64,000 nucleotides of DNA, taken from the sequence record OP795442. The stretch is one strand, 5' to 3'. A program made the position numbers and the translations under genes. Below are positions 462 through 62,793 of this stretch, piece after piece (position 1 is the first letter of the stretch; each line of letters starts with the position of its first letter). The notes beneath the pieces were generated by a model. It saw only the letters and a list, made by a program, of their open reading frames with translations, was not told the DNA's origin and ran no database searches. The stretch comes from Escherichia phage A7_1.

Positions 462-713
462 ATGATCGAACAAATCAAAACTACGACGGCTAATGTAACG
501 GGTACAATATCGCACTTTATTAGTGATGAATCGCGGGGCGTTCCTTATTGTGCAGTACATGTAAACAAAAATGGCGACTACTGGTTAACGGCGTATGGAT
601 CTTATTCTTTCGGACGTAGTGCACACCAAAAGATCCTGGATAAAGTACAACCAACGGGTAAAAATATTACCGCTGAGATGTTTAATAAATCACTTGCAAA
701 GTTAAAAGCGTAA
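462..713 (+). CDS. hypothetical protein (83 aa)
   Basis: ORF with RBS GGAG upstream, downstream of promoter-hairpin cassette. Confidence 0.55.
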   Translation: MIEQIKTTTANVTGTISHFISDESRGVPYCAVHVNKNGDYWLTAYGSYSFGRSAHQKILDKVQPTGKNITAEMFNKSLAKLKA

Positions 714-753
714 AGTATAATACATCACATCAGGCGGGGAGTGTTTCCCCGCC
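694..753 (+). promoter_or_regulatory. promoter (TTGCAA 694-699, TATAAT 716-721) plus hairpin GGCGGGGA/TCCCCGCC 733-753
   Basis: Consensus -10, perfect 8-bp stem just after predicted start site. Confidence 0.55.
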
Positions 754-774
754 ACAAAATGAAAGGCCAACAAA

Positions 775-954
775 ATGAAATCAAGCATGATGGTAGCGAC
801 TGTAAACATTATCATTGGTAACGGAACTGGACACCACGAAATCATAAAAAACAAGGCTTACTCTATTAGCTCCCTCAAAAACGACATGCGTTTATCTTTG
901 GGCCAAATCCGCGCTTACTTTCGTGAAGGCTATCAGAAAAAAGTAGCAAATTAA
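775..954 (+). CDS. hypothetical small protein (59 aa), absent from ORF track
   Basis: ATG 775 to TAA 952-954 read codon by codon; preceded by promoter-hairpin cassette. Confidence 0.45.
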   Translation: MKSSMMVATVNIIIGNGTGHHEIIKNKAYSISSLKNDMRLSLGQIRAYFREGYQKKVAN

Positions 955-957
955 TAG

Positions 958-986
958 TTGACGCAAAGGTCATTTTAATTTAATCT
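958..986 (+). promoter_or_regulatory. sigma70-like promoter (TTGACG 958-963, TAATCT 981-986)
   Basis: 17-nt spacer; precedes RBS GAGG and ATG 1015. Confidence 0.4.
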
Positions 987-1014
987 ATAACAAATCGACA
1001 AATGAGGCATAATC

Positions 1015-1317
1015 ATGTTTACCAAAGCAAATGAGTATTTCTTTTTAGATTTACTTGATGAAAGTATCTTTGTAGCTATGGGCAAAAAGTCAATGGTCTT
1101 TAAACGCAAAAAAGATAATGGTGACTTTGAAGATAGCGAAGCCGTGCTAACAGTCAAGGAAGGTAAAGATCCTGCAACGTCTGTTTTAATCTACACCTTG
1201 ACCAACGGCGGTGAAGTTATCGCATCAGGGAGTAGCCATCCGATCCCAAAATCGGAAGTGAACACTGTAATTATTGGTTTTGTTGCAGCTTGTTTCTACG
1301 AGGAAAAAAGCAAATGA
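1015..1317 (+). CDS. hypothetical protein (100 aa)
   Basis: ORF with RBS and upstream promoter. Confidence 0.55.
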   Translation: MFTKANEYFFLDLLDESIFVAMGKKSMVFKRKKDNGDFEDSEAVLTVKEGKDPATSVLIYTLTNGGEVIASGSSHPIPKSEVNTVIIGFVAACFYEEKSK

Positions 1318-1478
1318 ATCCGCAAAATTTATCTTATGTAAACTGGCCCAATAAGGCTGAGAAGAAAGAAAACTTGAAACGTCTGGTTAACTTTTATCGT
1401 GAAGCTGGTCATAGTAAAGTAACAGCGGTTAAAATGGCAAAGCGCCACCTTAACAAGCCAAGTACTAAACTAATTTAA
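1314..1478 (+). CDS. hypothetical small protein (54 aa)
   Basis: ATG 1314 overlaps upstream stop TGA 1315-1317 (ATGA coupling); RBS-like AGGAAAAAAG. Confidence 0.4.
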   Translation: MNPQNLSYVNWPNKAEKKENLKRLVNFYREAGHSKVTAVKMAKRHLNKPSTKLI

Positions 1479-1486
1479 AAAACTTG

Positions 1487-1515
1487 TTGACGTTGGCTTG
1501 TGCCGTACCTATAAT
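1487..1515 (+). promoter_or_regulatory. sigma70-like promoter (TTGACG 1487-1492, TATAAT 1510-1515)
   Basis: Consensus -10 with 17-nt spacer. Confidence 0.6.
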
Positions 1516-1550
1516 GGACGGCATAGGCAAACGAAATAGGATTTATAGAA

Positions 1551-1757
1551 ATGAAAAAGAAAATTGTATATAATATTATTAGCTTTATCGCAACTATCCT
1601 CCTGGCTATTGCTGGTCTATCTTTGATTGTTGCAGTAGGATCTCTGTTTCCTGGGGCAATAAGTATTAGCATAGCTTTCGCCGCATTGTCTGTTTTTACA
1701 GGGTATGCAGGGATTAAAGTTACTTACTGGTCAGAAGATTACAAATATTCAAACTAA
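1551..1757 (+). CDS. hypothetical membrane protein (68 aa)
   Basis: Two hydrophobic segments; ORF behind consensus promoter. Confidence 0.55.
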   Translation: MKKKIVYNIISFIATILLAIAGLSLIVAVGSLFPGAISISIAFAALSVFTGYAGIKVTYWSEDYKYSN

Positions 1758-1770
1758 ATTGAGGTGTAAG

Positions 1771-1920
1771 ATGTACAAGCTATTAACCTGGGAAACAGAA
1801 TCATCGTCACCGATCAGCCGGACCTTTTTTGATTTGTGCACGGCTTACAGGCTGGCAAAGGGAGGATATCATAAGGCCCAAATCATTGATGAATTTAATG
1901 TTATCCTTTATGAATTTTAA
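1771..1920 (+). CDS. hypothetical small protein (49 aa)
   Basis: ATG 1771 with RBS GAGGTG, 13 nt after upstream stop; track ORF 1705..1920 starts inside upstream gene. Confidence 0.3.
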   Translation: MYKLLTWETESSSPISRTFFDLCTAYRLAKGGYHKAQIIDEFNVILYEF

Positions 1921-1967
1921 TCAATTCATACACTTAAAAGAAAGTTAGAAAAAGTTTTAAAAAGTGG

Positions 1968-2020
1968 TTGCAACAGGTATTGGATAGTAGTATAGTACTT
2001 TCAACGGGGCGAGATGGCCC
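1968..2020 (+). promoter_or_regulatory. promoter (TTGCAA 1968-1973, TATAGT 1991-1996) plus short hairpin 2007-2020
   Basis: 17-nt spacer; GGGC/GCCC stem downstream. Confidence 0.45.
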
Positions 2021-2049
2021 AAAACGAAAAAACTTGAAAGGTGATTATC

Positions 2050-2142
2050 ATGATGGCAATTTTCTTAGTTTCTCTTCTGGTTGCTGTATGTTCTGCCACT
2101 GCTGCCGCTGTACTTTATGACACTCGCTACAATGAGGAATAA
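2050..2142 (+). CDS. hydrophobic micro-protein (30 aa), absent from ORF track
   Basis: ATG 2050, RBS AGGTG, TAA 2140-2142; sequence MMAIFLVSLLVAVCSATAAAVLYDTRYNEE. Confidence 0.3.
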   Translation: MMAIFLVSLLVAVCSATAAAVLYDTRYNEE

Positions 2143-2147
2143 TAAAA

Positions 2148-2366
2148 ATGAATATTGTCAACATTACAGGTAAGACCGAGATCCTTAAGAATCTTGCACC
2201 AGGTGAGTCCACCGTATGGATCTGCAAAGATGGAGAAGTAGAAAAACAAATGAGATTGTTTACCGCTATTTGTTGTCGGTTAAATATGAAAGTTACACAA
2301 ATCCGATCGATGATTGTTAGTGTGGGAAACATTCCGACTGAATGCATAATTCTTACAAAGATTTAA
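2148..2366 (+). CDS. hypothetical protein (72 aa)
   Basis: ORF 6 nt after upstream stop. Confidence 0.5.
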   Translation: MNIVNITGKTEILKNLAPGESTVWICKDGEVEKQMRLFTAICCRLNMKVTQIRSMIVSVGNIPTECIILTKI

Positions 2367-2373
2367 AAATAGC

Positions 2374-2401
2374 TTTACAACAACGATAAAATCAGTACAA
2401 T
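2374..2401 (+). promoter_or_regulatory. sigma70-like promoter (TTTACA 2374-2379, TACAAT 2396-2401)
   Basis: 16-nt spacer. Confidence 0.45.
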
Positions 2402-2442
2402 ACAAATCAGGCAATAAAGCCAACTAAAGAAAGGTAAAGACC

Positions 2443-2682
2443 ATGCAAACTATTATCACTAAGTTTCTTCCTCCTACGAATACCCGTGGCGCTCGCATCA
2501 AAGCAAAATGTTGGTTGACAGATATCACTATCGCCTATCCGGTAGCCGAGATCAACGAAGCCCATAAACTGGCGGCAGAAGTGTTAATTACAAAATTGAA
2601 GATGACAACAGATATTGATTGGAAAATTGTTGCAAGTGGTGAAACACCGGACGGATCAGGTTATGCATTTATCATCAAATAA
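2443..2682 (+). CDS. hypothetical protein (79 aa)
   Basis: ORF with RBS AAAGGTAAAG. Confidence 0.55.
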   Translation: MQTIITKFLPPTNTRGARIKAKCWLTDITIAYPVAEINEAHKLAAEVLITKLKMTTDIDWKIVASGETPDGSGYAFIIK

Positions 2683-2685
2683 TTG

Positions 2686-2741
2686 TTGACAACAGCAAAG
2701 TAAGCGCGTAGTATTCATTTTACAGGGGCGACAAGCGCCCC
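2686..2741 (+). promoter_or_regulatory. promoter (TTGACA 2686-2691, TAGTAT 2709-2714) plus hairpin GGGGCG/CGCCCC 2725-2741
   Basis: 17-nt spacer; 6-bp GC stem after start site. Confidence 0.55.
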
Positions 2742-2750
2742 GCTTATCAG

Positions 2751-3032
2751 ATGAGACAAATCATGAAAATATCATTGGACGTTGCAATCAAGGCCATCGA
2801 ATCCGGTTACACTCTGGTTAAGGACGATAAGGCTAAAATCGTGCATCACGTTAACAAGGAAACAGGCGAAAGCATGATCACATATAAAGCCGCCTACTTT
2901 CTCCAATCAGTAGCAGATCCGCGCCTGCAACGCCAGGTTACGGCGGCTATCGCTAAAAAATTATGTGCTTTACAAGGTACAAGTTTTAACGAGATCGCCC
3001 CGTGTTTTGATTGGTCAAGCTTGAAAAAATAG
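2751..3032 (+). CDS. hypothetical protein (93 aa)
   Basis: ORF after cassette; start could be ATG 2751 or 2763. Confidence 0.55.
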   Translation: MRQIMKISLDVAIKAIESGYTLVKDDKAKIVHHVNKETGESMITYKAAYFLQSVADPRLQRQVTAAIAKKLCALQGTSFNEIAPCFDWSSLKK

Positions 3033-3033
3033 T

Positions 3034-3091
3034 TTGACAATACGCAGTTATCTGGTAAAGTGTACTACATAGCGCGGAAATACTTCCCGCC
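3034..3091 (+). promoter_or_regulatory. promoter (TTGACA 3034-3039) plus imperfect GC hairpin about 3072-3091
   Basis: Weak -10 AAAGTG at 17-nt spacing, then conserved CATAG and GC stem. Confidence 0.45.
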
Positions 3092-3109
3092 ATTAATGAG
3101 GATAATTTA

Positions 3110-3247
3110 ATGAAAACTTTCAACGCAACAGCCTCGACAATTGGTTATATTATTACAGTGCAAGCCGTAGATCTGGTAGCAGCAGCAAACAAGATTAAAA
3201 GAATGATCCCGCTAGGTAGTGAATTTTCCGTTTGGGAAGTAAAATAA
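3110..3247 (+). CDS. hypothetical small protein (45 aa), absent from ORF track
   Basis: ATG 3110, RBS GAGG, TAA 3245-3247. Confidence 0.4.
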   Translation: MKTFNATASTIGYIITVQAVDLVAAANKIKRMIPLGSEFSVWEVK

Positions 3248-3250
3248 TTC

Positions 3251-3312
3251 TTGACAATAGTTTGTTACTTGATAGAATGTATTTCGTAGGGCGGGGCAAT
3301 GGAGCAACGCCC
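3251..3312 (+). promoter_or_regulatory. promoter (TTGACA 3251-3256) plus hairpin GGGCG...CGCCC 3289-3312
   Basis: Same architecture as neighbouring cassettes. Confidence 0.45.
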
Positions 3313-3330
3313 ATTAATGAGGCTAGCATC

Positions 3331-3435
3331 ATGTTAGAGAAAATTTTCACGGTTGCAGTGGTTGGCCTGGCGTTATCGGTTGGAGTGGTTGCAACTATGG
3401 CTAATATGATCCTATCTTCCCACGGTATCGGTTAA
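3331..3435 (+). CDS. hydrophobic micro-protein (34 aa)
   Basis: ATG 3331 after hairpin; track ORF 3232..3435 starts upstream of the promoter in the same frame. Confidence 0.35.
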   Translation: MLEKIFTVAVVGLALSVGVVATMANMILSSHGIG

Positions 3436-3447
3436 GAGAGACACATC

Positions 3448-3834
3448 ATGAAAACAGAAATCATTATTGAAATCATCAACGGTTACAAAGAGGCTTTTAT
3501 CTTTGCTGAATCAGCCAGGAATCACGAAGGTGATTTTATAGATGACATGACTGATTATGATTTTTCAGATCAAGCCCAGCAACGGATCATTCGTGACGTG
3601 GCGGCTTTTTGTGACGCCAATGATGCCGCTATCTCTGAGGCAATGAGCGACGGCGCAACAGCCAACCAGATCGGGAATGATTTACATTTTACCCGTAACG
3701 GTCACAGCGTAGGCTTTTGGGATCGCCCTGAGATATACACTACTAACACGGCTAACCGTTTGACCAATGCCGCTAAATTTATGCCAAACGTGTCAGCCTA
3801 CATTGGGAAAGATAATCTGATTTATATTGAATAA
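3448..3834 (+). CDS. hypothetical acidic protein (128 aa)
   Basis: ORF with RBS AAGAGAG. Confidence 0.55.
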   Translation: MKTEIIIEIINGYKEAFIFAESARNHEGDFIDDMTDYDFSDQAQQRIIRDVAAFCDANDAAISEAMSDGATANQIGNDLHFTRNGHSVGFWDRPEIYTTNTANRLTNAAKFMPNVSAYIGKDNLIYIE

Positions 3835-3840
3835 AAAGTA

Positions 3841-3895
3841 TTGACAAGCTGAATCAACCTGACAAGATGTATCACATAGGGGCGATAAACGCCCC
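3841..3895 (+). promoter_or_regulatory. promoter (TTGACA 3841-3846) plus hairpin GGGGCG-ATAAA-CGCCCC 3879-3895
   Basis: 6-bp GC stem after conserved CATAG. Confidence 0.5.
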
Positions 3896-3915
3896 ATAAC
3901 AGAAAGGGTAATCTT

Positions 3916-4110
3916 ATGACGTTAGCAACATGTACCGGATCAAAAATTGCTTGCTTTGAGTTTATGGAAGACTACCACACGACCGCAATCACTGACCAAT
4001 ATATTACAGTGATCACGCGTGACGGTATCGCCTGGCATGTTCCGGTTTATGATGGGGATACCTATGAAGTCACCGACAGCGACGGCAATACAGCTATCTT
4101 TGTTGTCTAA
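3916..4110 (+). CDS. hypothetical protein (64 aa)
   Basis: ORF with RBS AAAGGG. Confidence 0.55.
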   Translation: MTLATCTGSKIACFEFMEDYHTTAITDQYITVITRDGIAWHVPVYDGDTYEVTDSDGNTAIFVV

Positions 4111-4121
4111 GGGGGAACACT

Positions 4122-4349
4122 ATGCACAATAACATCATTACCGATCGTGCCGCCACTATGCGCCCTGGCGATCGGGCACGTTTACAGGTTGGCGCTTATC
4201 CGTTCCCTACTTATGACTTTTGCAAGGTGACGGCAGTCGAAAACAATCCCTTTGATCCTGATACTGTGATCATATGGTACGAAGGAAGGGGAAATAAGTA
4301 TGAAGATGTTTTATGGCGGGATGAGCATATCAACATTATTCGTTACTAA
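4122..4349 (+). CDS. hypothetical protein (75 aa)
   Basis: ORF with RBS GGGGGA. Confidence 0.55.
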   Translation: MHNNIITDRAATMRPGDRARLQVGAYPFPTYDFCKVTAVENNPFDPDTVIIWYEGRGNKYEDVLWRDEHINIIRY

Positions 4350-4466
4350 TCGCCACCTAACAGCCTAAATAGTAGGAGGCAATGCAATCCCTACTCAATG
4401 AGAATGGAGCGCCCTGGCTTATGCTGGGGCGTTTTATGTTGTATGGAAATAATTTAGAAAATAAGC

Positions 4467-4525
4467 TTGACGCCGGGAATGTTAGCGCGTATAGTTTATC
4501 ACATAGGGCGGCAATAGTGCCGCTC
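4467..4525 (+). promoter_or_regulatory. promoter (TTGACG 4467-4472, TATAGT 4490-4495) plus hairpin GCGGCA/TGCCGC 4506-4525
   Basis: 17-nt spacer; lies inside track ORF 4382..4717. Confidence 0.5.
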
Positions 4526-4543
4526 ATAATTGGAGTAGAGATC

Positions 4544-4717
4544 ATGGCAATTCTGGCGAAAGATGTAAAAGTAGGTATGACCTTTAATGATTGTGAAGTT
4601 GTCTATGTTGCCGCGCACGGCGACGGTATCATTACCATTGAAACAGAACACTTTGATCGAGATTGTGGCGAGATGGAATATTTTTCTTGCGAGTATCATG
4701 AAAACGATGAGTTTTAA
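4544..4717 (+). CDS. hypothetical protein (58 aa); could extend in frame from ATG 4382
   Basis: ATG 4544 with RBS GGAG downstream of embedded cassette. Confidence 0.4.
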   Translation: MAILAKDVKVGMTFNDCEVVYVAAHGDGIITIETEHFDRDCGEMEYFSCEYHENDEF

Positions 4718-4721
4718 ACTA

Positions 4722-4778
4722 TTGACACTGTAAGTAATTGTGTTAATATTTTTGTGTAGGGCGGCAATGTTGCCGCTC
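4722..4778 (+). promoter_or_regulatory. promoter (TTGACA 4722-4727, AATATT 4745-4750) plus hairpin GCGGCA/TGCCGC 4759-4778
   Basis: Hairpin nearly identical to the one at 4506-4525. Confidence 0.55.
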
Positions 4779-4797
4779 ACTGACTGGAGCTATCACC

Positions 4798-5199
4798 ATG
4801 ACCTTTACAATCACCTCTTACACTGACGTTGCCAGCATTGCTAAAACTTTCGGCCCTGAAGCCCTTAAATATGCGGTATCCAATGGTAATCTGACAAAAG
4901 AGGAATGTTATCTGATTGGAAGCTGTAAACGTTGGGCGGTATCTCGTAACATCGAGATTGAAAACGTAAATGATGGCAACATCGAATATAGCGTTGATGC
5001 AGTATTCCAAGTTGTTGATTTAGGTGGTATCTATAATACCAATCTTAATGATGTGCGTATCGTTCGCACTGGCTTTGGGGCTTATGATGTTCCAGTTCGT
5101 GAAGCTATGGAAAAAGGTTATATTAATCCAGCCATTTTAAGCATGATCATGACTGAGGCCAAACAACGTAACGAGATACGGGCTATCCTGGGCCTGTAA
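4798..5199 (+). CDS. hypothetical protein (133 aa)
   Basis: ORF with RBS GGAG. Confidence 0.6.
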   Translation: MTFTITSYTDVASIAKTFGPEALKYAVSNGNLTKEECYLIGSCKRWAVSRNIEIENVNDGNIEYSVDAVFQVVDLGGIYNTNLNDVRIVRTGFGAYDVPVREAMEKGYINPAILSMIMTEAKQRNEIRAILGL

Positions 5200-5220
5200 T
5201 GAAATATTAATGGAAAACTA

Positions 5221-5272
5221 TTGACACGGATCGTCAATATGCTAATATTTATCACGTAGGGCGGCAACGCCC
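5221..5272 (+). promoter_or_regulatory. promoter (TTGACA 5221-5226, AATATT 5244-5249) plus hairpin GGGCG-GCAA-CGCCC 5259-5272
   Basis: 17-nt spacer; GC stem with GNRA-like loop. Confidence 0.55.
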
Positions 5273-5298
5273 CAGATTAATAAAAATAGGAAATAAAT

Positions 5299-5505
5299 AT
5301 GACTACTTCAATGATCAGATCTTCCGACATTAAAAAGGCTTTATCTGCATTGCGTTATCATCATAGAATGAAAGTAATCAACGATGAGAGCTATCTAGAT
5401 TCATCGTTAGAAAGCGATACGTTGGAAGCCATTTCAAAATTATCTGATTTGCATAAACGCATGACCGAAAGCAACCGATCCGACTTCATAGGGGGCGAAA
5501 TATGA
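5299..5505 (+). CDS. hypothetical protein (68 aa)
   Basis: ORF with RBS AGGAAA. Confidence 0.55.
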   Translation: MTTSMIRSSDIKKALSALRYHHRMKVINDESYLDSSLESDTLEAISKLSDLHKRMTESNRSDFIGGEI

Positions 5506-5762
5506 GCATTGCAATGTTAATCAATACCGTAGAAGAGGCGAAAGCATTAAAGTTACGTGTTGAACTGATTGATCAGCCAGGTGGAGATCTCCTTGTACAA
5601 ATCTATCCCCCAAAGGATGATTCTGGCGCTTATGATTGGTGCTACTCTGACACGTTCGAACAAGTAGACATTAAAGCAATAACATCATTTATCAATAGGG
5701 CTATACTTGAGCAAACGATAGAACTTAACGGGATGTTAAAAACACCCTGGCACATTTACTGA
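5502..5762 (+). CDS. hypothetical protein (86 aa)
   Basis: ATGA overlap with upstream gene. Confidence 0.55.
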   Translation: MSIAMLINTVEEAKALKLRVELIDQPGGDLLVQIYPPKDDSGAYDWCYSDTFEQVDIKAITSFINRAILEQTIELNGMLKTPWHIY

Positions 5763-5772
5763 GTTCGACAAA

Positions 5773-5800
5773 AGGGCTTGACTTGTTCAGCCCTTTTTTG
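5773..5800 (+). terminator. intrinsic terminator
   Basis: GC-rich hairpin followed by TTTTTT. Confidence 0.6.
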
Positions 5801-5939
5801 CTATTCTTATCAAACGGGCGGCACCTGGGAACAGGGGGGAGGTAATCACTGGACGACTCCGCTATATAGTGATAGTAAATAGCTATCAATAATCTCCAAA
5901 AATAAAATAAAACATATCGAATCTTTACAATTCTTTCTG

Positions 5940-5968
5940 TTGACACAACAACCGCATTACAGTATTAT
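5940..5968 (+). promoter_or_regulatory. sigma70-like promoter (TTGACA 5940-5945, TATTAT 5963-5968)
   Basis: 17-nt spacer; no ORF downstream for about 340 nt. Confidence 0.5.
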
Positions 5969-5975
5969 TTATCTC

Positions 5976-6240
5976 GTAGGGCAGCGAAGCAGTGATGTAA
6001 AGTAGTTACTCTATGATGTAAGTTCTGAGAAGTCGAATCCGATAAAGTATCAGAAAGTTTCTAAGTTTTCGAATCGTCCAGATGAAAAAGGCTGGCAAGT
6101 GTTGAGAAAGGGCACGTTGAGTAAGTCCTGAACAGGGGCGCTCCTAGACACCTTCTACTGAGATTGCGATCGAAGTGTTAAACTGTGAGAAACGATAAAG
6201 AGTACCAGGAAAGAAAGAAGTAAAAGAAGTGAAAAAGATT
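5976..6240 (+). ncRNA. candidate small non-coding RNA or long leader
   Basis: Promoter-driven segment with stops in all frames and longest ATG ORF of 7 codons; AG-rich 3' part. Confidence 0.25.
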
Positions 6241-6241
6241 G

Positions 6242-6271
6242 TTGACACGAAGGTAAGTTTTGTACTATTAT
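6242..6271 (+). promoter_or_regulatory. sigma70-like promoter (TTGACA 6242-6247, TATTAT 6266-6271)
   Basis: 18-nt spacer. Confidence 0.5.
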
Positions 6272-6315
6272 CTATCTTGTAGGGCAAACTTCAAAAACAT
6301 TAAAAAGGGTACAAA

Positions 6316-6591
6316 ATGTTACAGCTTAACGCCAAATTAGACAAAGAAATCACTGAATTTTGGGATATGGTAGTAGCTACAGATGTTGACGGTGTAGCAA
6401 GTCCTTACCTCAACAACATCGAATACCACAATGTTGCTGCAATGAATGCAGAATACGCAGAAGAAGGCGGCGCGGATAAGTTTGCTAAAAGCAACGGTTT
6501 CACTGATGCTAACGACATGATGCAATCAGTATTGTGGCAAGCCCAGGAAGATTTTCAAGAAAAAACCCTTGAATTCGCCAGACGTTCATAA
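6316..6591 (+). CDS. hypothetical acidic protein (91 aa)
   Basis: ORF with RBS AAGGG. Confidence 0.55.
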   Translation: MLQLNAKLDKEITEFWDMVVATDVDGVASPYLNNIEYHNVAAMNAEYAEEGGADKFAKSNGFTDANDMMQSVLWQAQEDFQEKTLEFARRS

Positions 6592-6643
6592 TAGAATAAT
6601 CAAACGGGCCGAAAGGCCCACTAACTAACCTAACAGGATTATC

Positions 6644-6916
6644 ATGATGAATCGCATCGACCAATTGAAAGTAGTTCAGCATATGGCCTACCGTATCCTT
6701 GAAGTTCAGAAAGGAAGCAAAAAAGAAGTATGTGAGAAAGCGTACAAGGTATTCAGCCATAAATCTGACGATTGGAAGTTGCAGAAAGTCAAAAAGGCCG
6801 ACATTCTGGGCTATCTTGAAGAAGAGATCCGACTTGCAGACCAAAAACAGATTCGTCGTGATGAGGCTGAACATAACCAGGCTTGGAAAGAATGGTTTAA
6901 AGGGTACACTAAGTAA
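6644..6916 (+). CDS. hypothetical protein (90 aa)
   Basis: ORF with RBS CAGGA. Confidence 0.5.
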   Translation: MMNRIDQLKVVQHMAYRILEVQKGSKKEVCEKAYKVFSHKSDDWKLQKVKKADILGYLEEEIRLADQKQIRRDEAEHNQAWKEWFKGYTK

Positions 6917-6925
6917 TACTAAAAC

Positions 6926-6947
6926 AGGGGTCATATGGCCCCTTTGT
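6926..6947 (+). terminator. intrinsic terminator
   Basis: Hairpin AGGGGTCATATGGCCCCT then TTTG. Confidence 0.5.
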
Positions 6948-6977
6948 AAATATCCTATTAATTTACAATTTTCCCTA

Positions 6978-7007
6978 TTGACAGAGAAGTCAGTTTTGCA
7001 CTATAGT
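6978..7007 (+). promoter_or_regulatory. sigma70-like promoter (TTGACA 6978-6983, TATAGT 7002-7007)
   Basis: 18-nt spacer. Confidence 0.5.
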
Positions 7008-7047
7008 TAAGTTCCTGGCAGCAAACAACAAAACAAAGGATAATAGC

Positions 7048-7467
7048 ATGAACATCAAATCAACTAATCCAGCATACTCTTTCGATAACGCCTTTTGTCA
7101 CGGTAGCGCCGCCAAAGGTTTTGAAATTGATGGTAAACTGGTTATCGTCAATGTTGATGGGGAAGAGGTTGCAGTTTATCCAGTAGCAGACGTTAAAAGC
7201 CGTTTACAATGCCGCATGGATGTTAACGATTATCGCCTTGATCCGGTTCGTGTAGTTGCCCTGGTTCTGGAAGAGGAAATTAAAGCAATGCAGCACAGCA
7301 ACAAATTTATCGGCGATGCACAGGACAACATGAAAGTAAGCCGCCACAAAGTTAATGAAGCACTGAAAGATTTTGGCTTTAAAGATCTAGTTATCAAACG
7401 TGATGAAAAATTCCGCTTTCGTAATGATCTGGCAAATCGCTACTATGAAATATATGAAGCACTTTAA
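7048..7467 (+). CDS. hypothetical protein (139 aa)
   Basis: ORF with RBS AAGGA. Confidence 0.6.
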   Translation: MNIKSTNPAYSFDNAFCHGSAAKGFEIDGKLVIVNVDGEEVAVYPVADVKSRLQCRMDVNDYRLDPVRVVALVLEEEIKAMQHSNKFIGDAQDNMKVSRHKVNEALKDFGFKDLVIKRDEKFRFRNDLANRYYEIYEAL

Positions 7468-19993: not shown

Positions 19994-20151
19994 TTGATGT
20001 ACCGAGCAGCAGCCGTACCGATAAGTAAACCAGCAGGAACTGCGACAATGATAGCTTCAATCATTTTGAGATCTGCTGCAACACATGCTGCACCAACAAC
20101 AACAGAACCAGCCCAGATAGCAATTACACGTTTCAAAAATTTAGTATTCAT
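19990..20151 (-). CDS. hypothetical small membrane protein (about 53 aa), absent from track
   Basis: Read by eye as MNTKFLKRVIAIWAGSVVVGAACVAADLKMIEAIIVAVPAGLLIGTAAARYIK. Confidence 0.3.
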   Translation of the reverse strand: MNTKFLKRVIAIWAGSVVVGAACVAADLKMIEAIIVAVPAGLLIGTAAARYIK

Positions 20152-20154
20152 TTG

Positions 20155-20394
20155 TTAGTCTCCTGATTTTGTTAAGTTTTCTTTTATTTTTACGTACTCG
20201 ATTAAAGATTTTGCGAGATCACCATCGATTTTCTCACAAACCATGAGTATCTCTCTTACCTTTTCGGGATGAACAGATTCATAGAATTTCCAATCCTCTG
20301 TTCTCCCTTCTGTGGTTTGGGAAGTGAAGTATTCTTCTCTGTCCCGCTCCGGTAAGAGATAATATACAAGACTTAGCTTCCTCTCGTCAAGCAT
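20155..20394 (-). CDS. hypothetical protein (79 aa), paralog of 19685..19993
   Basis: Shares ERDREEYFTS...EGRTEDW motif. Confidence 0.45.
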   Translation of the reverse strand: MLDERKLSLVYYLLPERDREEYFTSQTTEGRTEDWKFYESVHPEKVREILMVCEKIDGDLAKSLIEYVKIKENLTKSGD

Positions 20395-20403
20395 TTTATC
20401 ACC

Positions 20404-20778
20404 TTATTCGTAAAAAACCTTATCCGCTTGTTCTTTCAGCCACCCCTGTCGGAAAGCACTCTTAAGTATTTCTGCCCACTTCGGATTTGCTGCCTCTAAG
20501 AGAAGTACCTCTTCTTTCTCTATGTTCATAGGGTCAGCAAAGAAATCCAAAATCTGCTCATTGAAGACACCCTCTATCAAGATCCCTTTGTATTTCAACG
20601 TCAAACGTTTTGCCATAAAACCTTGAGATAATAAAGCCTCATCTAGATCGAGTTTCGTAGTTGGAGGGTTTGGAAAAGGAAAACCCTGCATCGGTGTTGG
20701 TGATGCACCTGTCTTCACAAAAGTGTTCCCACCAGTTTTATTGAAGAAACCTTTCATATTTTTATCGTACAATGACAT
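20404..20778 (-). CDS. hypothetical protein (124 aa)
   Basis: Track ORF. Confidence 0.45.
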   Translation of the reverse strand: MSLYDKNMKGFFNKTGGNTFVKTGASPTPMQGFPFPNPPTTKLDLDEALLSQGFMAKRLTLKYKGILIEGVFNEQILDFFADPMNIEKEEVLLLEAANPKWAEILKSAFRQGWLKEQADKVFYE

Positions 20779-21217
20779 TTTCTACCCTCTCTTGAATTTT
20801 TATCTCTGCCTCATCTAAAGCTTCCCCCATTGCAAGGAGATACCTTGAAATTTCAGGGAACAACGCTTCAAACATCTCCACCTCATCTTCAAGGATATCC
20901 GTTGGATCGAGGAAATACTCTTCAAGGACTATTCGCTTTGTCACGCTCTTGTTGCCGTAAGTAACAAAAACGAAACGATCAGGTTTCCCAATAGAATCTT
21001 TGGAGGTTCTCCATTGGAAAAGATGCCTGTTTGAACTTATGTTTATCCTTTTGTCAGCCTTGTCCAGCGGGATTCTAAAACTTACGGATGCTGACATTCC
21101 TTCGGATTGAGTCCATTTTTCACTCTTCTTAAAAATATTGTTCCGGTATCTGTTTTTACCTAAGGCATTAAAAGTCCACTGCCTGCTCAATCTCTCGATT
21201 ATCTCTTTAGTTTTCAA
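20762..21217 (-). CDS. hypothetical protein (151 aa) with shared C-terminal module
   Basis: Contains PTDILEDEVEMFEALFPE. Confidence 0.45.
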   Translation of the reverse strand: MKTKEIIERLSRQWTFNALGKNRYRNNIFKKSEKWTQSEGMSASVSFRIPLDKADKRINISSNRHLFQWRTSKDSIGKPDRFVFVTYGNKSVTKRIVLEEYFLDPTDILEDEVEMFEALFPEISRYLLAMGEALDEAEIKIQERVENVIVR

Positions 21218-21735
21218 AACGGTATGTCCTCGTCAACAATAAATTTTATAGCATTCTTTACAGCCGCTTTATTCAGATGTTGAACACGCTGGAAGAACAT
21301 TAGGTTCAAGTCAAGAAGAATATCATCATCTCCGTACAACGCCGTGAAAAGATCAAGCTCTTCATCTGTCGGATGCGTGGGATTCTCAAATAAGCCCTCA
21401 AACACCACCTGGGCCTCATTTCTTTTAGCCAGCGTGGTTGAGTCTCGATAGATATTTAATACCGTGTGTACATCATCTACGCTTAGGATTTTGACACATT
21501 CCAGATCTCCTGTGTCACCATTGAGATAAAGAGTGATCGCAGGAGTTGACCAATTTGATTCACTTATTGCATAAACGTAGATGCTTTTGCGATTACCAAC
21601 TGCAATAGACTCTTCAATTTTCTTTTCTGCCGCCTTAAAGAAAGGTTGGTGTTTGATCCAATGCTCCCAACCAATCCAACGAGCACCCTTACCATACGCA
21701 TTCAGCACATGATTCTCAATGTTACGTTTACTCAT
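21214..21735 (-). CDS. hypothetical protein (173 aa) with shared C-terminal module
   Basis: Contains PTDEELDLFTALYGDD. Confidence 0.5.
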   Translation of the reverse strand: MSKRNIENHVLNAYGKGARWIGWEHWIKHQPFFKAAEKKIEESIAVGNRKSIYVYAISESNWSTPAITLYLNGDTGDLECVKILSVDDVHTVLNIYRDSTTLAKRNEAQVVFEGLFENPTHPTDEELDLFTALYGDDDILLDLNLMFFQRVQHLNKAAVKNAIKFIVDEDIPF

Positions 21736-21787
21736 TTAAAACCCCCATAAAAGAAAAGCCAGCCACCTTTCGGTGACTGGCCTAGAG

Positions 21788-22285
21788 TTAGCTACTAATC
21801 ACCACGAATGCAGTAACTATAGCATACAGAAATCCAATTGCAACAAAAATTATCATAATGGGGTCAGAGGTTACTCGCTTAAGTTTTCCTAAGAAAGTTG
21901 ATCGGTATTTGTGTTCCTTCTCCATTTTGTTTATCAAAATGATGAAAGAGTTGATATGAATATCTTCAGCACTCTCTGCAAAAGGTGTGTACTTAAACGT
22001 ACCTTCTGTGTTTGCGACGAAGCTGCTGTGATACTTTTTACCATCATAACTTTCTATGAGAAGACCATCCTTTGTCACCCGATAACTGACCGAACGGAAC
22101 TTGTCATAAAAAACGTATGCTCTAAATCCTTCCTGATCGGGACTGGCCCTTCTGACGAATCCGTCAAAAAACTCCAATCTCTTTCCAGAATTTAGTTCCA
22201 CGTTGTCAGCTAACATAGGGAGTTGACTTACATATGTAAAGTACATAATGACCATCCTTCCACTAAGCTGAACACATTTTATCAT
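21788..22285 (-). CDS. hypothetical protein (165 aa), C-terminal membrane anchor
   Basis: C-terminal hydrophobic helix. Confidence 0.5.
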   Translation of the reverse strand: MIKCVQLSGRMVIMYFTYVSQLPMLADNVELNSGKRLEFFDGFVRRASPDQEGFRAYVFYDKFRSVSYRVTKDGLLIESYDGKKYHSSFVANTEGTFKYTPFAESAEDIHINSFIILINKMEKEHKYRSTFLGKLKRVTSDPIMIIFVAIGFLYAIVTAFVVISS

Positions 22286-22447
22286 ATTATGAAAAAATAC
22301 AACAGCGAAGATCGGTCATGAACACTATGTTGTTAATTTTTACAACAAGACTCCAAAAAAGTATTTAAATAACTTAAATCGATTTTAATACATAGAAAAT
22401 ACCTATGGACCAGATCTGACCCATAGGGTATACCTTAATGTGAAATT

Positions 22448-23026
22448 TTATTCATTTCCTCGATATTTTTGAATCGCGATCGAAGTCCTTGGTTCAGCCA
22501 GGCCAGTTCCGTATGCATACCATTTACCAGTGAGTGTTTTTCGAGCACCGTAGGACCCAATCTCCATATCGTCACAATAAACATCGTAACCGATCGGAGT
22601 CTTAATTAAAAAGAGTACGTCACGAGGAATCCCTAAGAGGGTAAACATCGATATGGCATCTTTTGCGATCTCGTGAGAAATCTTCTCTGCATTCTTTTTA
22701 CTACTGGCACTTCTAAACAGTTCCATCTTTAAGAAGATATTGAAATGAATATCATCAAGAACCATCTCATCACGAAAGCATGGGGTCACAGCCATCCAAC
22801 TGCCATCTTCCAACTTCCCCTCTTTGTCGAGTTGAAGGAATGATTGCTCTGCGGAAGCTACTGCGTATTTCCCGTTCTGGACAATGCGAAGATCAGTAAC
22901 ATCTTCGGGGCATGTATGGTCCATAGCATCATCATCCACATAGCTTGGGACAACCTTATCATTGAAACCTTTACATTTCCACCAACTATGAGCATCAATA
23001 AACAATGTGAAGTCAATGTTTGACAT
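22448..23026 (-). CDS. hypothetical protein (192 aa)
   Basis: Probable start at MSNIDF, just after upstream stop. Confidence 0.45.
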   Translation of the reverse strand: MSNIDFTLFIDAHSWWKCKGFNDKVVPSYVDDDAMDHTCPEDVTDLRIVQNGKYAVASAEQSFLQLDKEGKLEDGSWMAVTPCFRDEMVLDDIHFNIFLKMELFRSASSKKNAEKISHEIAKDAISMFTLLGIPRDVLFLIKTPIGYDVYCDDMEIGSYGARKTLTGKWYAYGTGLAEPRTSIAIQKYRGNE

Positions 23027-23027
23027 T

Positions 23028-23630
23028 TTAGCCTCGCTTACCATTCTGGAATGCACGTTTAGTGATTTTTGACATAACCATCAGGTCTTCCAGTGAAGTG
23101 CTCGGATGATGCTTATTCAAGTAGGCTTCCACAGCACCAACCAGATCAGAAAGCTCTACCAACTCCATGATCTTGCATTTTTGTTTGGCTGCATCCTTAA
23201 GTTCATCAAGTTCTTCTTGAATCTTAGTGATCTCTCCAAGTTCTCCACGAGGGAAAGTATCCAGATGATAACCTGGTTTTTGTTCTTCGATCTCTTCATG
23301 TCCGACAACACGAAATTTTCCGGCAGCGAAACGCCAAACACCTTCAAAATACACAATGTAATGTTCCGACTCTACAATGAAGATAGTGTCGAAATTTTTA
23401 AATTTGAAAAATCCTTCAACAAGATTATCTTCTGTACTGAAACTTCCTAAGAAGTTGAGTTCTTGCTCCGTATGAAATTCGATAACCATATTTTCGTTCT
23501 GGAGTTTCGTCAGCAATTTTAAAATTTTCATTTTCTCTCCTCTTATGGGCAACACCGTGGAGATCTTCCACAGAAGAATTGCCAATTGGTTTCTGAATCT
23601 TTGTGGTTTACAAAACCTATCCTTCCGCAC
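23028..23630 (-). CDS. hypothetical protein (200 aa), weak MazG-like helix
   Basis: EELDELKDA...ELVELSDL segment; too short for a firm family call. Confidence 0.4.
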   Translation of the reverse strand: MRKDRFCKPQRFRNQLAILLWKISTVLPIRGEKMKILKLLTKLQNENMVIEFHTEQELNFLGSFSTEDNLVEGFFKFKNFDTIFIVESEHYIVYFEGVWRFAAGKFRVVGHEEIEEQKPGYHLDTFPRGELGEITKIQEELDELKDAAKQKCKIMELVELSDLVGAVEAYLNKHHPSTSLEDLMVMSKITKRAFQNGKRG

Positions 23631-24031
23631 CCTTTCCCACTACAAACCGCTTCACGAGGATGATAGTCTATACTGCAAGAGTGGGGATGATCAAATGCCT
23701 CCTGTATTTCAACACAGAGTCTACTTAACCAAGCGAACATTTTTGGCATAGAAGCTTCAAGGAGTTTAAGTTCATCGACCGTAGGTTTGTCTTTCTCCAT
23801 GAAGAAGTCATTTATCTCGGAAAACAAAATCACGTTTTGAACTATACCGCTGCTTACCTTGTAAGAGAACTCCTCAGTAAGTCTCACAGTAACTTCCTCT
23901 ATCAATTCTTTTTCATTATCTTGATCTTTTGCTAATCTTTCTTCAATCCATCGGATAACGAAGAATCTTTCTCTCTGAACATCCATGTTCAAAGTATTGA
24001 TTATTTTTTCATAGATTAGGTTTCCTTCCAT
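23543..24031 (-). CDS. hypothetical protein (162 aa), Cys-rich C-terminus
   Basis: Contains KPTVDELKLLEASMPKMF and a C-terminal Cys cluster. Confidence 0.45.
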   Translation of the reverse strand: MEGNLIYEKIINTLNMDVQRERFFVIRWIEERLAKDQDNEKELIEEVTVRLTEEFSYKVSSGIVQNVILFSEINDFFMEKDKPTVDELKLLEASMPKMFAWLSRLCVEIQEAFDHPHSCSIDYHPREAVCSGKGCGRIGFVNHKDSETNWQFFCGRSPRCCP

Positions 24032-25143
24032 ACCTTGTCTTGTGCCTCCAGGATAAGTTTTTCAACAATCTTCAGATCTGTTTTCTTTGGTAAGCTCGAT
24101 TGCTTATAAAGAACATCTGTGATCATTTTATCTTTTTCTTCAGCCCACTCAACAATTTCTTCATAGCGGTATTCACCATTTCGGATTGCGAGGAGTTCTT
24201 CAGCGTCTGGTCGATTCACTAAAACTTTACCTTCTGTGAGGATTTCTTCACCCATCCGAAGAAGCCGGACCAAATGCATAGCATGTTTAGTGTCGTAACC
24301 GAACTTCTCTTCCAGTTCATGACGCTTCTCGTTACGATTCTTAACCCACTCCCAGTAGTTGTGGTGTTTCTCCTTGGCCCATTTATGATCGTCAGCACAA
24401 TACTTAACAATCATCAGAGTCTTGCCTCTTTTAACTTCCTCTGGGATTTCTTCATAGTCTAGCTTACGGATAGAACCATCTTTATTAAACATTGGTTGAA
24501 CATCTTCACTACGATCTTCTACAACACCGTAAATGTTACCACCGTAAGGAACCAAAGTACAGAAGCCTTCCATGTTTTTAAATTTACGAACAAAGTCTTC
24601 GTACTTCAACTCACCTTCTCCGAGATAGCTCTGCACCAGACGGAAATAGTCAAATTGAGTTGGTGGCTCTTTTGGTTGCGGATTATTAATGTGTTTGTTG
24701 TGACCCTTGATCCGCTTTAACTGAGACATTGCATAACCACTGAAGCGAAATGCAACTTCACGAGACAGTAAGGAGTAGAAATGTTCTTTCATCTCTTTCC
24801 AAGCTTCGTGCTCGTACAATGTGGCTTTCGGATCAGTAAAACCCAGTTCAATGATATTTGGGTTCATCTTCGAAAACAGTTGAAGGAAAGTTCCCAATTC
24901 GTAGATCTTGGCATCCTCTTCACCAGGGATGTTTAATTCAGTAACCTCTTTGAATGGGGTACGAACCACATTTGGGGTTGCAACAAAAACCCCACGGATA
25001 TCAATATCACTACCTTCGTTATTCGTACCATACGCATGAGATCCTGCCAGACTCAACATCAGTACCTTCGCTACGTCTGGATGCTTTTCCATCTTCTCTA
25101 CGATACTTTTTACCTTTCCAGCACTCACAACTGAATTTTCCAT
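24016..25143 (-). CDS. Pol-beta-superfamily nucleotidyltransferase-like protein (375 aa)
   Basis: N-terminal GSHAYG...SDIDIRG motif (GS-x-D-x-D). Confidence 0.45.
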   Translation of the reverse strand: MENSVVSAGKVKSIVEKMEKHPDVAKVLMLSLAGSHAYGTNNEGSDIDIRGVFVATPNVVRTPFKEVTELNIPGEEDAKIYELGTFLQLFSKMNPNIIELGFTDPKATLYEHEAWKEMKEHFYSLLSREVAFRFSGYAMSQLKRIKGHNKHINNPQPKEPPTQFDYFRLVQSYLGEGELKYEDFVRKFKNMEGFCTLVPYGGNIYGVVEDRSEDVQPMFNKDGSIRKLDYEEIPEEVKRGKTLMIVKYCADDHKWAKEKHHNYWEWVKNRNEKRHELEEKFGYDTKHAMHLVRLLRMGEEILTEGKVLVNRPDAEELLAIRNGEYRYEEIVEWAEEKDKMITDVLYKQSSLPKKTDLKIVEKLILEAQDKVWKET

Positions 25144-25233
25144 TTATCCTCCAATCATGTAAGTCACACAAGCCAACCCAGTTGGCCTGTTTAATCTTTA
25201 TAAAGTTTACGCAGCTTGTGCAATCTTTTTTAT

Positions 25234-25629
25234 TTATAGGCATTTCACACCATAAATGATCATCAACACAACAAGTGTCAACGTATAAAAGAAGCTCCCG
25301 TAAAGTCCATAACTGGTAATTTTAAGCTTTTTCTTAAAGCACATCATTGTACTATAAATTACACCAGTCCAGTGAATCACTAAAATCGCGGTGGCAATAT
25401 CTGAAACATTACCCGCCCAAAGCATCAGAGAGTATGAGAGGTACATTGCAAAACCTGATAGCAAGAATGTAAACAAATAACCAATTACACTTTTCTTTTT
25501 CTGATCTACGATTTTATTTTTCATGGTATCGATATTCAGATTGTAGTAGGCAACCACCACCATCTGGATAATCAACCCCAGGATAAAGAAAGAGATCAGT
25601 GTAACGTATTCAAAAATTGGTGCAGTCAT
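25234..25629 (-). CDS. hypothetical integral membrane protein (131 aa)
   Basis: Four hydrophobic segments. Confidence 0.5.
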   Translation of the reverse strand: MTAPIFEYVTLISFFILGLIIQMVVVAYYNLNIDTMKNKIVDQKKKSVIGYLFTFLLSGFAMYLSYSLMLWAGNVSDIATAILVIHWTGVIYSTMMCFKKKLKITSYGLYGSFFYTLTLVVLMIIYGVKCL

Positions 25630-26027
25630 TATAATTTCTCCTCAATAATTTCAGAAATGAGATTCGAGATCTCGAAAGTTTCTAACTCTTCGACGTGTGA
25701 CAAGCGCCGGAGGCGCTCGATAACAAAGTCTTTCTTCACAAACACATCCGACAGATGCTCAATGTCCTGCTTACCACGCATTCCGCTAACCAACTGCTTG
25801 TATCGGATGAGTTCAATATACTCTTCTTTGGACATTACTGTCAAGCGTTCATCTGCACAAATATGCAAAAATACTTGCTTGCTGTCCCAGTCGAACCCAT
25901 TGTGCACTGCTTCTACTTCACGGTGAGGTGTCCCGCCAATTGTTACATGACCAACCTCAACGGGGATAGATACCTGATCATCAGGTCGGCACTGCTGCAA
26001 CTCCTCAATCAATTCAGATACTTTCAT
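25629..26027 (-). CDS. hypothetical protein (132 aa)
   Basis: Track ORF. Confidence 0.5.
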   Translation of the reverse strand: MKVSELIEELQQCRPDDQVSIPVEVGHVTIGGTPHREVEAVHNGFDWDSKQVFLHICADERLTVMSKEEYIELIRYKQLVSGMRGKQDIEHLSDVFVKKDFVIERLRRLSHVEELETFEISNLISEIIEEKL

Positions 26028-26029
26028 AG

Positions 26030-28894: not shown

Positions 28895-28944
28895 CGTATT
28901 CTCCTAGTTGATGACTATCATTATACACATCCCCGAATTCAAGT

Positions 28945-28973
28945 CAACAAAAAAGGCCACCCGAAGGTGACCT
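28945..28973 (-). terminator. intrinsic terminator
   Basis: Hairpin with GAA loop followed by T-run on minus strand. Confidence 0.5.
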
Positions 28974-28979
28974 TTAAAT

Positions 28980-29489: not shown

Positions 29490-29491
29490 TC

Positions 29492-30337: not shown

Positions 30338-30348
30338 ATTAATTCCCC

Positions 30349-62792: not shown

Positions 62793-62793
62793 A

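Follow-up and report, generated by a model that had tools for sequence, protein, structure and literature searches.

The 5' untranslated region (UTR) of ompA of Escherichia coli, known from the work of the Belasco laboratory, represents a type of messenger RNA stabiliser in which a stem-loop occupies the 5' terminus. A leader of comparable design was found at positions 5940–6241 of the DNA studied here, a 64,000-nucleotide (nt) window of the Vequintavirinae coliphage Escherichia phage A7_1 (record OP795442; coordinates refer to this window and to its plus strand unless stated otherwise). The likeness comprises an untranslated leader, a 5'-terminal hairpin followed by a second one, portability between genes and a position at the head of highly expressed messages; a hairpin does lie within a few nt of the predicted 5' end, as is characteristic of the type. 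Unlike the ompA leader, the phage module possesses conserved GAA/AAGUA loops and an 88-nt core and moves between viruses together with its promoter, and stabilisation by it is putative. The putL and putR sites of phage HK022 likewise follow early promoters closely and form a pair of neighbouring stem-loops with internal loops; neither element needs a phage protein, and the target would be host RNA polymerase. However, put sites are GC-rich and confined to HK022-like lambdoid phages, and at the present locus there is no evidence of terminators to suppress. Phage morons and accessory early-gene cassettes also have their own promoter, lie between resident genes, occur patchily and are exchanged between unrelated phages, but here the cargo is a structured RNA and not a protein gene. 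The segment is tentatively interpreted as a horizontally mobile promoter-plus-leader cassette acting in cis, whose transcription, start site, stabilising effect and evasion of Rho are predictions.

The first part of the leader is its 5' module, which comprises the hairpins H1 and H2 (Table 1). An earlier note on this DNA had placed a consensus promoter in front of this region and a further promoter at 6242, and both were recovered by the promoter scan (P1 and P2). The start site of promoter P1 is predicted near 5975–5976. H1 begins to pair 6–8 nt past the −10 hexamer in 9 of 10 sequences (8 nt in the A7_1 window), and the leader of each lineage has its own sigma-70 promoter, scoring 8–11 out of 12. 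It follows from this fixed distance that the unit of homology is the transcript and that H1 is its 5'-terminal stem-loop. This placement at the predicted start site is the strongest argument for the RNA as the functional unit.

The fold of the 5' module is supported by compensatory double changes in 16 of 21 pairs among 10 sequences from 6 lineages. These include all 8 pairs evaluated in the outer stem of H1, and compensatory changes were observed in 8/10 pairs of H2. In the same sequences, 87.6% of the cells were paired, compared to 29–39% in controls with slid partners, and none of 500 shuffles reached any of five measures, two robust ones included. In the resulting consensus, which occurs twice, an outer stem is followed by the internal loop GAA / (A/U)AAGUA and by a small inner hairpin that bears a cap. 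A covariance model of the module (R2) detected a single copy in the A7_1 window with 96.7 bits; the members scored 64–100 bits, and 853 kb of unrelated viral DNA containing the seed motif gave no more than 25 bits. Beside the stems, the loops are conserved: in H1 the AA of the GAA and the AAAGUA are invariant and the 5' G is present in 9/10 sequences (A in KarlSchell), and in H2 GAA and AAG are invariant and the closing UA is nearly so.

The module continues into a junction that originated by duplication (Table 1). TCGAATC occurs at 5917, 6033 and 6069, and its repetition is due to the 36-nt internal duplication, the copy at 6069 opening the core. The repeated TCGAATC motifs listed in the earlier note are thus present, but they do not form an independent motif, as one is part of the inner hairpin in H2 and the other, a result of the duplication, stands at the start of the core. 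In the alignment, Rtp-type leaders do not have the segment 6059–6075. The leaders of the Drexlerviridae are devoid of H2, and R2 places the H2 unit on hairpin P2 of the core (GAA...CAAGUG) there. This alignment suggests that the leader may be an array of related hairpin units.

The middle part of the leader is the core with its hairpins P2, P3 and P4. Its pairing amounts to 95.3% of the cells, compared to 33–48% when the partners were slid, and 3 pairs show double changes. Pairing in P2 and P4 is kept through AU<->GC, GC<->CG and CG<->UA changes: P2 alternates between CCAG/CUGG and CCGG/CCGG, with both states within the Drexlerviridae, and P4 shows GC<->CG and CG<->UA. Variation gathers in these two hairpins, P3, the loops and the strand AGACACCUUCU being invariant, and in the GAANA pentaloop of P4 only position 4 varies across lineages. 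The fold of the core is specific to the plus strand; with 29 G.U cells, pairing reaches 95% on this strand versus 80% on the minus strand. A covariance model of the core (R1) found one copy only. Between the A7_1 window and phage SA80RD the 5' module is far more diverged than the core, which is 92% identical. The hairpin at the 3' position of the leader differs in every lineage; SA80RD and NC29 have a common loop (CUUUACGAAGA) on different stems. Since the 3' hairpin of A7_1 has no U-tract, it is not an intrinsic terminator.

The core is present in only 11 coliphages, which belong to three unrelated families (Vequintavirinae, Seuratvirus and Drexlerviridae). According to BLAST, it is intergenic and promoter-proximal in the Seuratvirus members SA80RD, SLUR75 and WildeMaa/Bas23 and in the Drexlerviridae members Rtp, PH1062, ZL19 and BUCT-XGG-1. 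Its flanks are unalignable between the three lineages, the neighbouring proteins are unrelated, no flanking protein common to the three lineages was found, and most relatives within each lineage do not possess the core. In Seuratvirus the leader lies between an early promoter and the first gene; in CAjan and KurtStettler the same promoter is followed by a gene about 45 nt later. Similarly, rV5-like AlexBoehm has a single promoter and no leader upstream of its homologue of ORF 6316. Searches for core homologues by pattern scans gave true matches only for Rtp in IMG/VR and only chance matches in JGI metagenomes and GTDB.

The 5' module is more widespread. It was first detected as 76% similarity to Salmonella phages of the Grimontviridae (BLAST) and also aligns significantly with Seuratvirus leaders; altogether it occurs in Vequintavirinae, Seuratvirus, Grimontviridae, SP6-like podoviruses, a group of podoviruses of about 77 kb, and the microvirus NC29. 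Pattern scans and BLAST identified the contigs L096 and L118 and Pantoea phage Nufs112 as SP6-like carriers, and the 77-kb group is represented by MN03, XT18/32/73 and KarlSchell_Bas89. In the alpha3-like microvirus NC29, an insert of about 219 nt (2483–2701) between genes C and D comprises a promoter spacer, a −10 hexamer and the leader, and is missing from the sister microviruses ID62, ID21 and WA13. It is apparently a non-coding module that was transferred between virus realms. The common layout is promoter, H1–H2, a variable middle module, a lineage-specific 3' hairpin and the gene or genes. The middle module is the 88-nt core in A7_1, a different structured module in NC29 and KarlSchell, and a perfect boxA of the ribosomal RNA (rrn) operons in L096. 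The leader directly precedes the first ORF in the SP6-like contigs and in KarlSchell, and no terminator follows it in any lineage examined. In the A7_1 window, and apparently in Rtp (judged by eye), the cassette is placed upstream of a resident promoter.

Phage 5' leaders and non-coding RNAs are already known as a kind. What appears to be new is this family, its placement at +1 and its exchange together with the promoter across seven families and two realms. In the literature searched, no paper describing the leader element was found. With Rfam 15, only transfer RNAs (tRNAs) reached the gathering score in the window; the best match in 5700–6400 had E = 0.28 (eukaryotic small nucleolar RNA noise), and the related loci gave nothing at E ≤ 0.1. 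BLAST against 5,426 E. coli genomes showed no match even at E ≤ 10, nor was one found in plasmids, and the E. coli rrnB operon shares only 8–12-mers with the leader.

Within the A7_1 genome, the locus is part of a run of small plus-strand early genes, each with its own sigma-70-type promoter. The stretch 5940–6245 is 100% identical to Escherichia phage A5-4, and the whole locus is common only to A5-4, A73, LTH01 and UPEC06 (BLAST). A 6.6-kb block of small early genes (710–7346) is missing from the otherwise collinear close relative W70, which shows that the cassette resides in a hypervariable accessory island. The −10/+1 block TATYTATCTYGTAGGGCA has four plus-strand copies in the window (5246, 5966, 6269 and 7524; 0.12 expected), and those of the two promoters are 90% identical over 21 nt (direct repeat D1). 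By its sequence, promoter P1 duplicates the −10/+1 block of promoter P2. The 267-nt leader consists of 63% purines with a C/G ratio of 0.52, which places it in the top 0.15% of 267-nt windows in the first 10 kb; it is the most purine-rich stretch of the early region. The excess of −10/+1 copies, this composition and the conservation in unrelated phages show that the pattern did not arise by chance. All core-bearing leaders show similar values (62–63% purine, C/G 0.52–0.74). The purine-rich tail resembles A-tracts and UP elements, shows non-triplet indels among four vequintaviruses and is missing from Seuratvirus leaders. The AG-rich tail of the earlier note is real; it is confined to this phage lineage and coincides in part with the sequence upstream of promoter P2.

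The ORF check showed that only four ORFs with an ATG start begin in 5969–6241 (Table 1). In agreement with the earlier note, none before 6242 exceeds 7 codons and all frames contain stops, namely 9, 4 and 8 in the three plus frames of 5969–6241; the longest ORFs with GTG or TTG starts reach 10–17 codons. The start-stop mini-ORFs are present as had been stated, but they are not conserved: SE131 and pSal have AUGCAA in place of AUGUAA, and Rtp possesses no AUG there. The 7-codon ORF does not behave as a gene either, as the variants MKNAGKC and MKNAGEC of MKKAGKC occur, and the bases that encode the peptide covary as a stem. Across the core homologues no conserved reading frame was found on either strand, and there was no match to Pfam or PHROG. 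One plus frame is open in some lineages and is interrupted by TGA in the A7_1 window and A73 and by a 1-nt insertion in SLUR75 and WildeMaa; the minus frame has a stop in Rtp, and minus-strand ORFs annotated by depositors are broken in other lineages. In A5-4 and UPEC06 a hypothetical protein is annotated at 6144–6287 on the minus strand, spanning the purine-rich tail and promoter P2; because of the non-triplet indels among the four vequintaviruses it is regarded as a spurious gene call.

Table 1. Features of the promoter-plus-leader locus in the A7_1 window
Feature	Position	Strand	Description	Source
Promoter P1, sigma-70 type	TTGACA 5940–5945; TATTAT 5963–5968	+	17-nt spacer; 11/12 matches	promoter scan
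5' module	5977–6055	+	two hairpins, each with a GAA/AAGUA internal loop	
Hairpin H1	5977–6013	+	outer stem 5977–5985 with 6005–6013	RNAalifold and pair counts
H1 inner part	GAA 5986–5988; AAAGUA 5999–6004; stem and cap 5989–5998	+	GAA opposite AAAGUA; 3-bp stem GCA/UGU capped by GUGA	
Hairpin H2	6023–6055	+	outer stem 6023–6028 with 6050–6055	RNAalifold and pair counts
H2 inner part	GAA 6029–6031; AAAGUA 6044–6049; hairpin 6032–6043	+	GAA opposite AAAGUA; hairpin GUCG-AAUC-CGAU, holding the first TCGAATC of the leader	
Duplication/junction	6059–6075	+	TTCTAAGTTTTCGAATC; repeats 6023–6039 at 76% identity, 36 nt apart (D3)	
Core	6069–6156	+	88 nt, three hairpins; 85–92% identical in three unrelated phage families	
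Hairpin P2	6078–6095	+	CCAG/CUGG stem, loop AUGAAAAAGG	
Hairpin P3	6099–6115	+	GUGUU/GGCAC stem, 7-nt loop GAGAAAG, invariant	
Hairpin P4	6119–6143	+	GAGU/GCUC outer and GUCCU/GGGGC inner stem, GAACA pentaloop	
Invariant single strand	6146–6156	+	AGACACCUUCU	alignments
3' hairpin, lineage-specific	6148–6178	+	ACAC(C)UUC pairs with GAAGUGU	read from sequence
Purine-rich tail	6199–6240 (feature entry to 6241)	+	GAGTACCAGGAAAGAAAGAAGTAAAAGAAGTGAAAAAGATTG; 9-nt unit AAAGAAGTA x2.3; adjoins the −35 of promoter P2 on its upstream side	
Promoter P2	6242–6271	+	TTGACA-18-TATTAT; resident promoter of ORF 6316–6591	promoter scan
ATG open reading frames (ORFs)	5995–6000; 6013–6021; 6016; 6082–6105	+	M-stop; MM-stop; M-stop; MKKAGKC-stop (7 codons)	ORF check
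Minus-strand ORFs	6006–6098; 6050–6151; 6144–6287	−	not conserved; no Pfam or PHROG match	

These observations bear out the proposal of the earlier note that the segment is a non-coding unit working at the RNA level: the homology begins at the predicted start, the stems examined by structure prediction and covariation against homologous regions are supported by compensatory changes, G.U pairs occur on the plus strand only, and no frame is conserved. Its alternative, the remnant of a deleted gene, did not hold, because none of the relatives with homologous DNA has an ORF there, stops and a 1-nt indel disrupt the frames, and no match to a protein family was obtained. Over the other proposals of the note, a free small regulatory RNA or a decoy, a cis-acting 5' leader is favoured, since no lineage has a terminator and in four of them the leader is the 5' UTR of the first gene.

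According to this cis-acting interpretation, the host RNA polymerase would start about 7 nt past TATTAT and produce an untranslated, purine-rich and C-poor RNA. Its first nucleotides would fold as H1, followed by H2, the three-hairpin core and the 3' hairpin. As no intrinsic terminator was detected between 5969 and 6316 by the terminator scan, the transcript is expected to run through promoter P2 into the small early genes. The 5'-terminal stem-loop may shield the 5' end from RppH and RNase E, and the C-poor composition may deny Rho a loading site on the long untranslated leader. The conserved loops (the two GAA/AAGUA loops of the sarcin-ricin type, the GNRA-like caps and the invariant stretches of the core) might serve as a docking platform for a host factor. 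Strong conservation of loops and core implies that a specific host partner probably exists, and it would have to be encoded by the host because the cassette occurs in phages that share no protein. The L096 leader carries a perfect rrn boxA (GCTCTTTAACAA), which indicates that such leaders can carry cis-acting transcription modules. The 5'-terminal hairpin, the C-poor composition, the role as 5' UTR in four lineages, the boxA of L096 and the retention of the cassette by a 6-kb microvirus all favour a cis-acting leader.

Several points weigh against this interpretation. The leader and the next gene are separated by a second promoter in the A7_1 window and apparently also in Rtp; the downstream gene is thus independent of the leader, which fits a stand-alone RNA at least as well. 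For stabilisation a plain 5' hairpin would suffice, so that the conservation of the loops and the core is not explained by this role. The patchy distribution, with the core in 11 genomes, is expected of accessory functions in host interaction or counter-defence. Downstream terminator counts were no higher than in shuffles, and hence there is no evidence of terminators to overcome. Support for the fold of the core, which comes from 9 distinct sequences in 3 lineages, is moderate, and the predicted stability is no better than that of shuffled sequences (z = +1.9 for the leader as a whole and between +1.3 and +1.6 for the majority of the cores); the lack of an unusual z-score is attributed to the purine-rich composition.

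The sarcin-ricin (bulged-G) motif, a docking site for protein and RNA at which VapC20 and Shiga toxin bind, has GAA facing AGUA as its signature in sequence (PMC5737476). This signature is present twice at the sequence level, in H1 (5986–5988/6001–6004) and in H2 (6029–6031/6046–6049). The likeness to the sarcin-ricin loop (SRL) or loop E of ribosomal RNA includes the internal loop between helices and, in H1, a GNRA-type cap (GUGA versus GAGA of the SRL). It is a likeness of sequence, however, in which the two strands have the opposite order with respect to the cap, two additional A residues occur and 3 bp instead of 1 separate the loop from the cap. It is possible, although rather unlikely, that the cassette is a mobile RNA hijacking a host factor: its sarcin-ricin-type and GNRA-capped hairpins, arrayed behind the promoter, would then bind a conserved protein of E. 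coli, for instance RNA polymerase (in the manner of put), a GTPase of translation, or an RNA-targeting nuclease that serves in defence or as a toxin. As no viral protein would be needed, such an RNA could have jumped among at least seven phage families, from tailed phages with double-stranded DNA to a microvirus with single-stranded DNA.

A related but rather unlikely explanation is a trans-acting early RNA, with the leader or a processed piece of it titrating or misleading a host protein as a counter-defence or host-takeover factor; a motif-recognising defence nuclease or toxin, a translation GTPase, RNase E or Hfq could be targets. The three GAA-hairpin-AAGUR units, two with sarcin-ricin-type loops, and the GNRA-like caps would suit such an RNA, as sarcin-ricin motifs serve as docking sites of toxins, and the alignment of the H2 unit to hairpin P2 in Drexlerviridae supports an array of repeated units. 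Loops and single strands are far more conserved than the stems require, and with no flanking protein in common the partner must again be encoded by the host. The cassette also has its own promoter followed by another one, lies inside the 6.6-kb accessory island and is patchy among close relatives (absent from W70, rV5-like phages, CAjan and KurtStettler). On the other hand, no lineage shows an intrinsic terminator or a defined 3' end; the intrinsic terminator with U tail typical of Hfq-dependent small RNAs was found neither in 5969–6316 nor in other lineages. In Seuratvirus, SP6-like phages, KarlSchell and NC29 the next gene clearly has the element as its 5' UTR, and in a 6-kb microvirus a decoy is less expected than a booster of expression. 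Furthermore, the immunity profiles of Queuovirinae in the BASEL collection are homogeneous, with no distinguishing phenotype reported for Bas23. Host mimicry and an antisense role were rejected, as neither complementarity nor similarity to sequences of E. coli could be detected.

Three resemblances were judged to be due to chance: GAAGCAGUG is complementary to the RybB seed over 8 bp, a 10-mer also occurs in 4.5S RNA, and position 1401, inside a gene, has a third GAA-hairpin-AAGUA unit. An antitoxin of the type III (ToxI-like) was rejected, as tandem repeats of 30–40 nt are missing and only the 9-nt unit is repeated 2.3 times in the tail. A tRNA-like element was also rejected; neither ARAGORN nor RF00005 recognised one, and the four-way junction predicted for SA80RD has no features of a T-loop or anticodon loop.

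Processive antitermination of the put or nut type, in which the nascent hairpins would bind RNA polymerase or recruit Nus factors against Rho and terminators, is decidedly unlikely. It would agree with a pair of neighbouring stem-loops, with conserved internal loops, that closely follow early promoters and have the orientation of the operons, with the lack of a following terminator and of any required phage protein, and with the C-poor composition. However, R2, applied with filters off to HK022 20000–32000, had its best match inside int (14.5 bits) and none at putL or putR. In its favour, P4 and P2 resemble the lambda boxB hairpin, GUCCUGAACAGGGGC agreeing with GCCCUGAAAAAGGGC at 12 of 15 positions, the GAANA pentaloop occurs across lineages, and the L096 leader holds a genuine boxA. 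The boxB-like element has a stem of 5–6 bp with GAACA or GAAAA in Vequintavirinae and Seuratvirus but only 2 bp in Drexlerviridae, where the inner P4 stem is degenerate. Compared to the lambda nut sites and the boxB-boxA-boxC leader of rrn operons, the A7_1 leader has hairpins whose GAANA pentaloops resemble boxB, and L096 and SP6 carry a perfect boxA in such leaders; it differs in having no conserved boxA, no N-like partner and no similarity to the rrnB leader. A lambda-type boxA (CGCUCUUA) beside boxB is suggested by CGCTCCTA only in the A7_1 lineage and is lost in Rtp (AACTCCCA) and WildeMaa (GTCTCCAA). For the rrn-type boxA GCUCUUUAACAA, the best match in the A7_1 leader has 4 mismatches, whereas genuine copies are present in L096 and SP6. 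The carriers have no N-like protein in common, the downstream terminator counts equal those of shuffles, and a patchy, dispensable distribution would be odd for an operon-wide role.

Perfect or near-perfect copies of boxA (GCTCTTTAACAA) are repeated in the host-transcribed early region of SP6 (656, 926 and 1536) and of L096 (three copies); the first SP6-like copy belongs to the leader, immediately ahead of gene 1. SP6 (610–640) and the Grimontviridae phage SE131 (880–920) have another leader-like module in common, CATCGGGAGGC...AACGATA, which comes after a promoter in each of them. In SE131, about 1.1 kb (1160–2245) are without an annotated gene or Rfam match.

An element acting at the DNA level (an array of operators or UP elements, a replication origin or R-loop primer site activated by transcription, or a signal for packaging) is very unlikely. 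R-loops form readily where a strong promoter precedes a purine-rich non-template strand, the tail overlaps the upstream region of promoter P2, and the cassette is near a genome end or iteron-like repeats in Rtp, ZL19, pSal, SE131 and KarlSchell (CCCCGT). Genome-end coordinates, however, are arbitrary in many records, the 5' edge of the homology is at +1 and not at the promoter, and compensatory changes and plus-strand-only G.U pairs are unexpected for sites in duplex DNA. Non-functional DNA, either a decayed gene remnant or a short peptide gene (MKKAGKC), can practically be dismissed: although gene callers put small ORFs here in A5-4, UPEC06 and PH1062 and some lineages have one plus frame that stays open throughout the core, no frame is free of interruptions in all lineages, the vequintaviruses differ by indels that are not multiples of three, Pfam and PHROG gave no match, the peptide undergoes K->N and K->E changes while its codons covary as stem P2, and 85–92% identity across three families beside unalignable flanks is incompatible with neutral decay.

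Further elements were observed at related loci and elsewhere in the window. The Rtp leader is flanked by the direct repeat AATAGCAC(T/G)TTTTG at 62–85 and 298–321, which also occurs in L004 and L006 at about 1355. A stretch of 25–34 nt around AATAGCAC is widespread in Drexlerviridae (80 records) and is probably a shared promoter or operator element. In KarlSchell_Bas89, many copies of a CCCCGT-containing, iteron-like motif are present at 1230–1830, in a 1-kb intergenic region upstream of the leader. In the A7_1 window, two consecutive genes are each followed by ATCAAACGGGC and then a GC hairpin (5809 and 6599, within 5763–5860 and 6594–6625). The copy at 5809 and the preceding terminator-like hairpin are kept in rV5-like AlexBoehm, where they are annotated as an ORF of 29 amino acids. 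Two gaps of about 0.7 kb (7787–8459 and 8877–9620), near a strand switch at about 10 kb, have no convincing ORFs. The 32 nt at 8026–8057 are 97% identical to intergenic DNA of the unrelated coliphages 18-1-2 and TH18, and 86% identity to Av-05 extends over 50 nt. Finally, a tRNA cluster (Met, Tyr, Gly, Gln and Pro) is located at 61323–63124, including a weaker Rfam tRNA match (61323–61401) that ARAGORN did not call.

Conserved non-coding RNAs of phage early regions are almost unexplored, and these regions are commonly interpreted as series of small uncharacterised proteins. The exchange of the cassette among seven phage groups implies a function that is independent of phage proteins, dependent on the host and useful to very different viruses. 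If the leader stabilises or anti-terminates transcripts, it would also provide an off-the-shelf portable part for expression; should its partner be a factor of defence or translation, it would represent a new class of RNA counter-measure.

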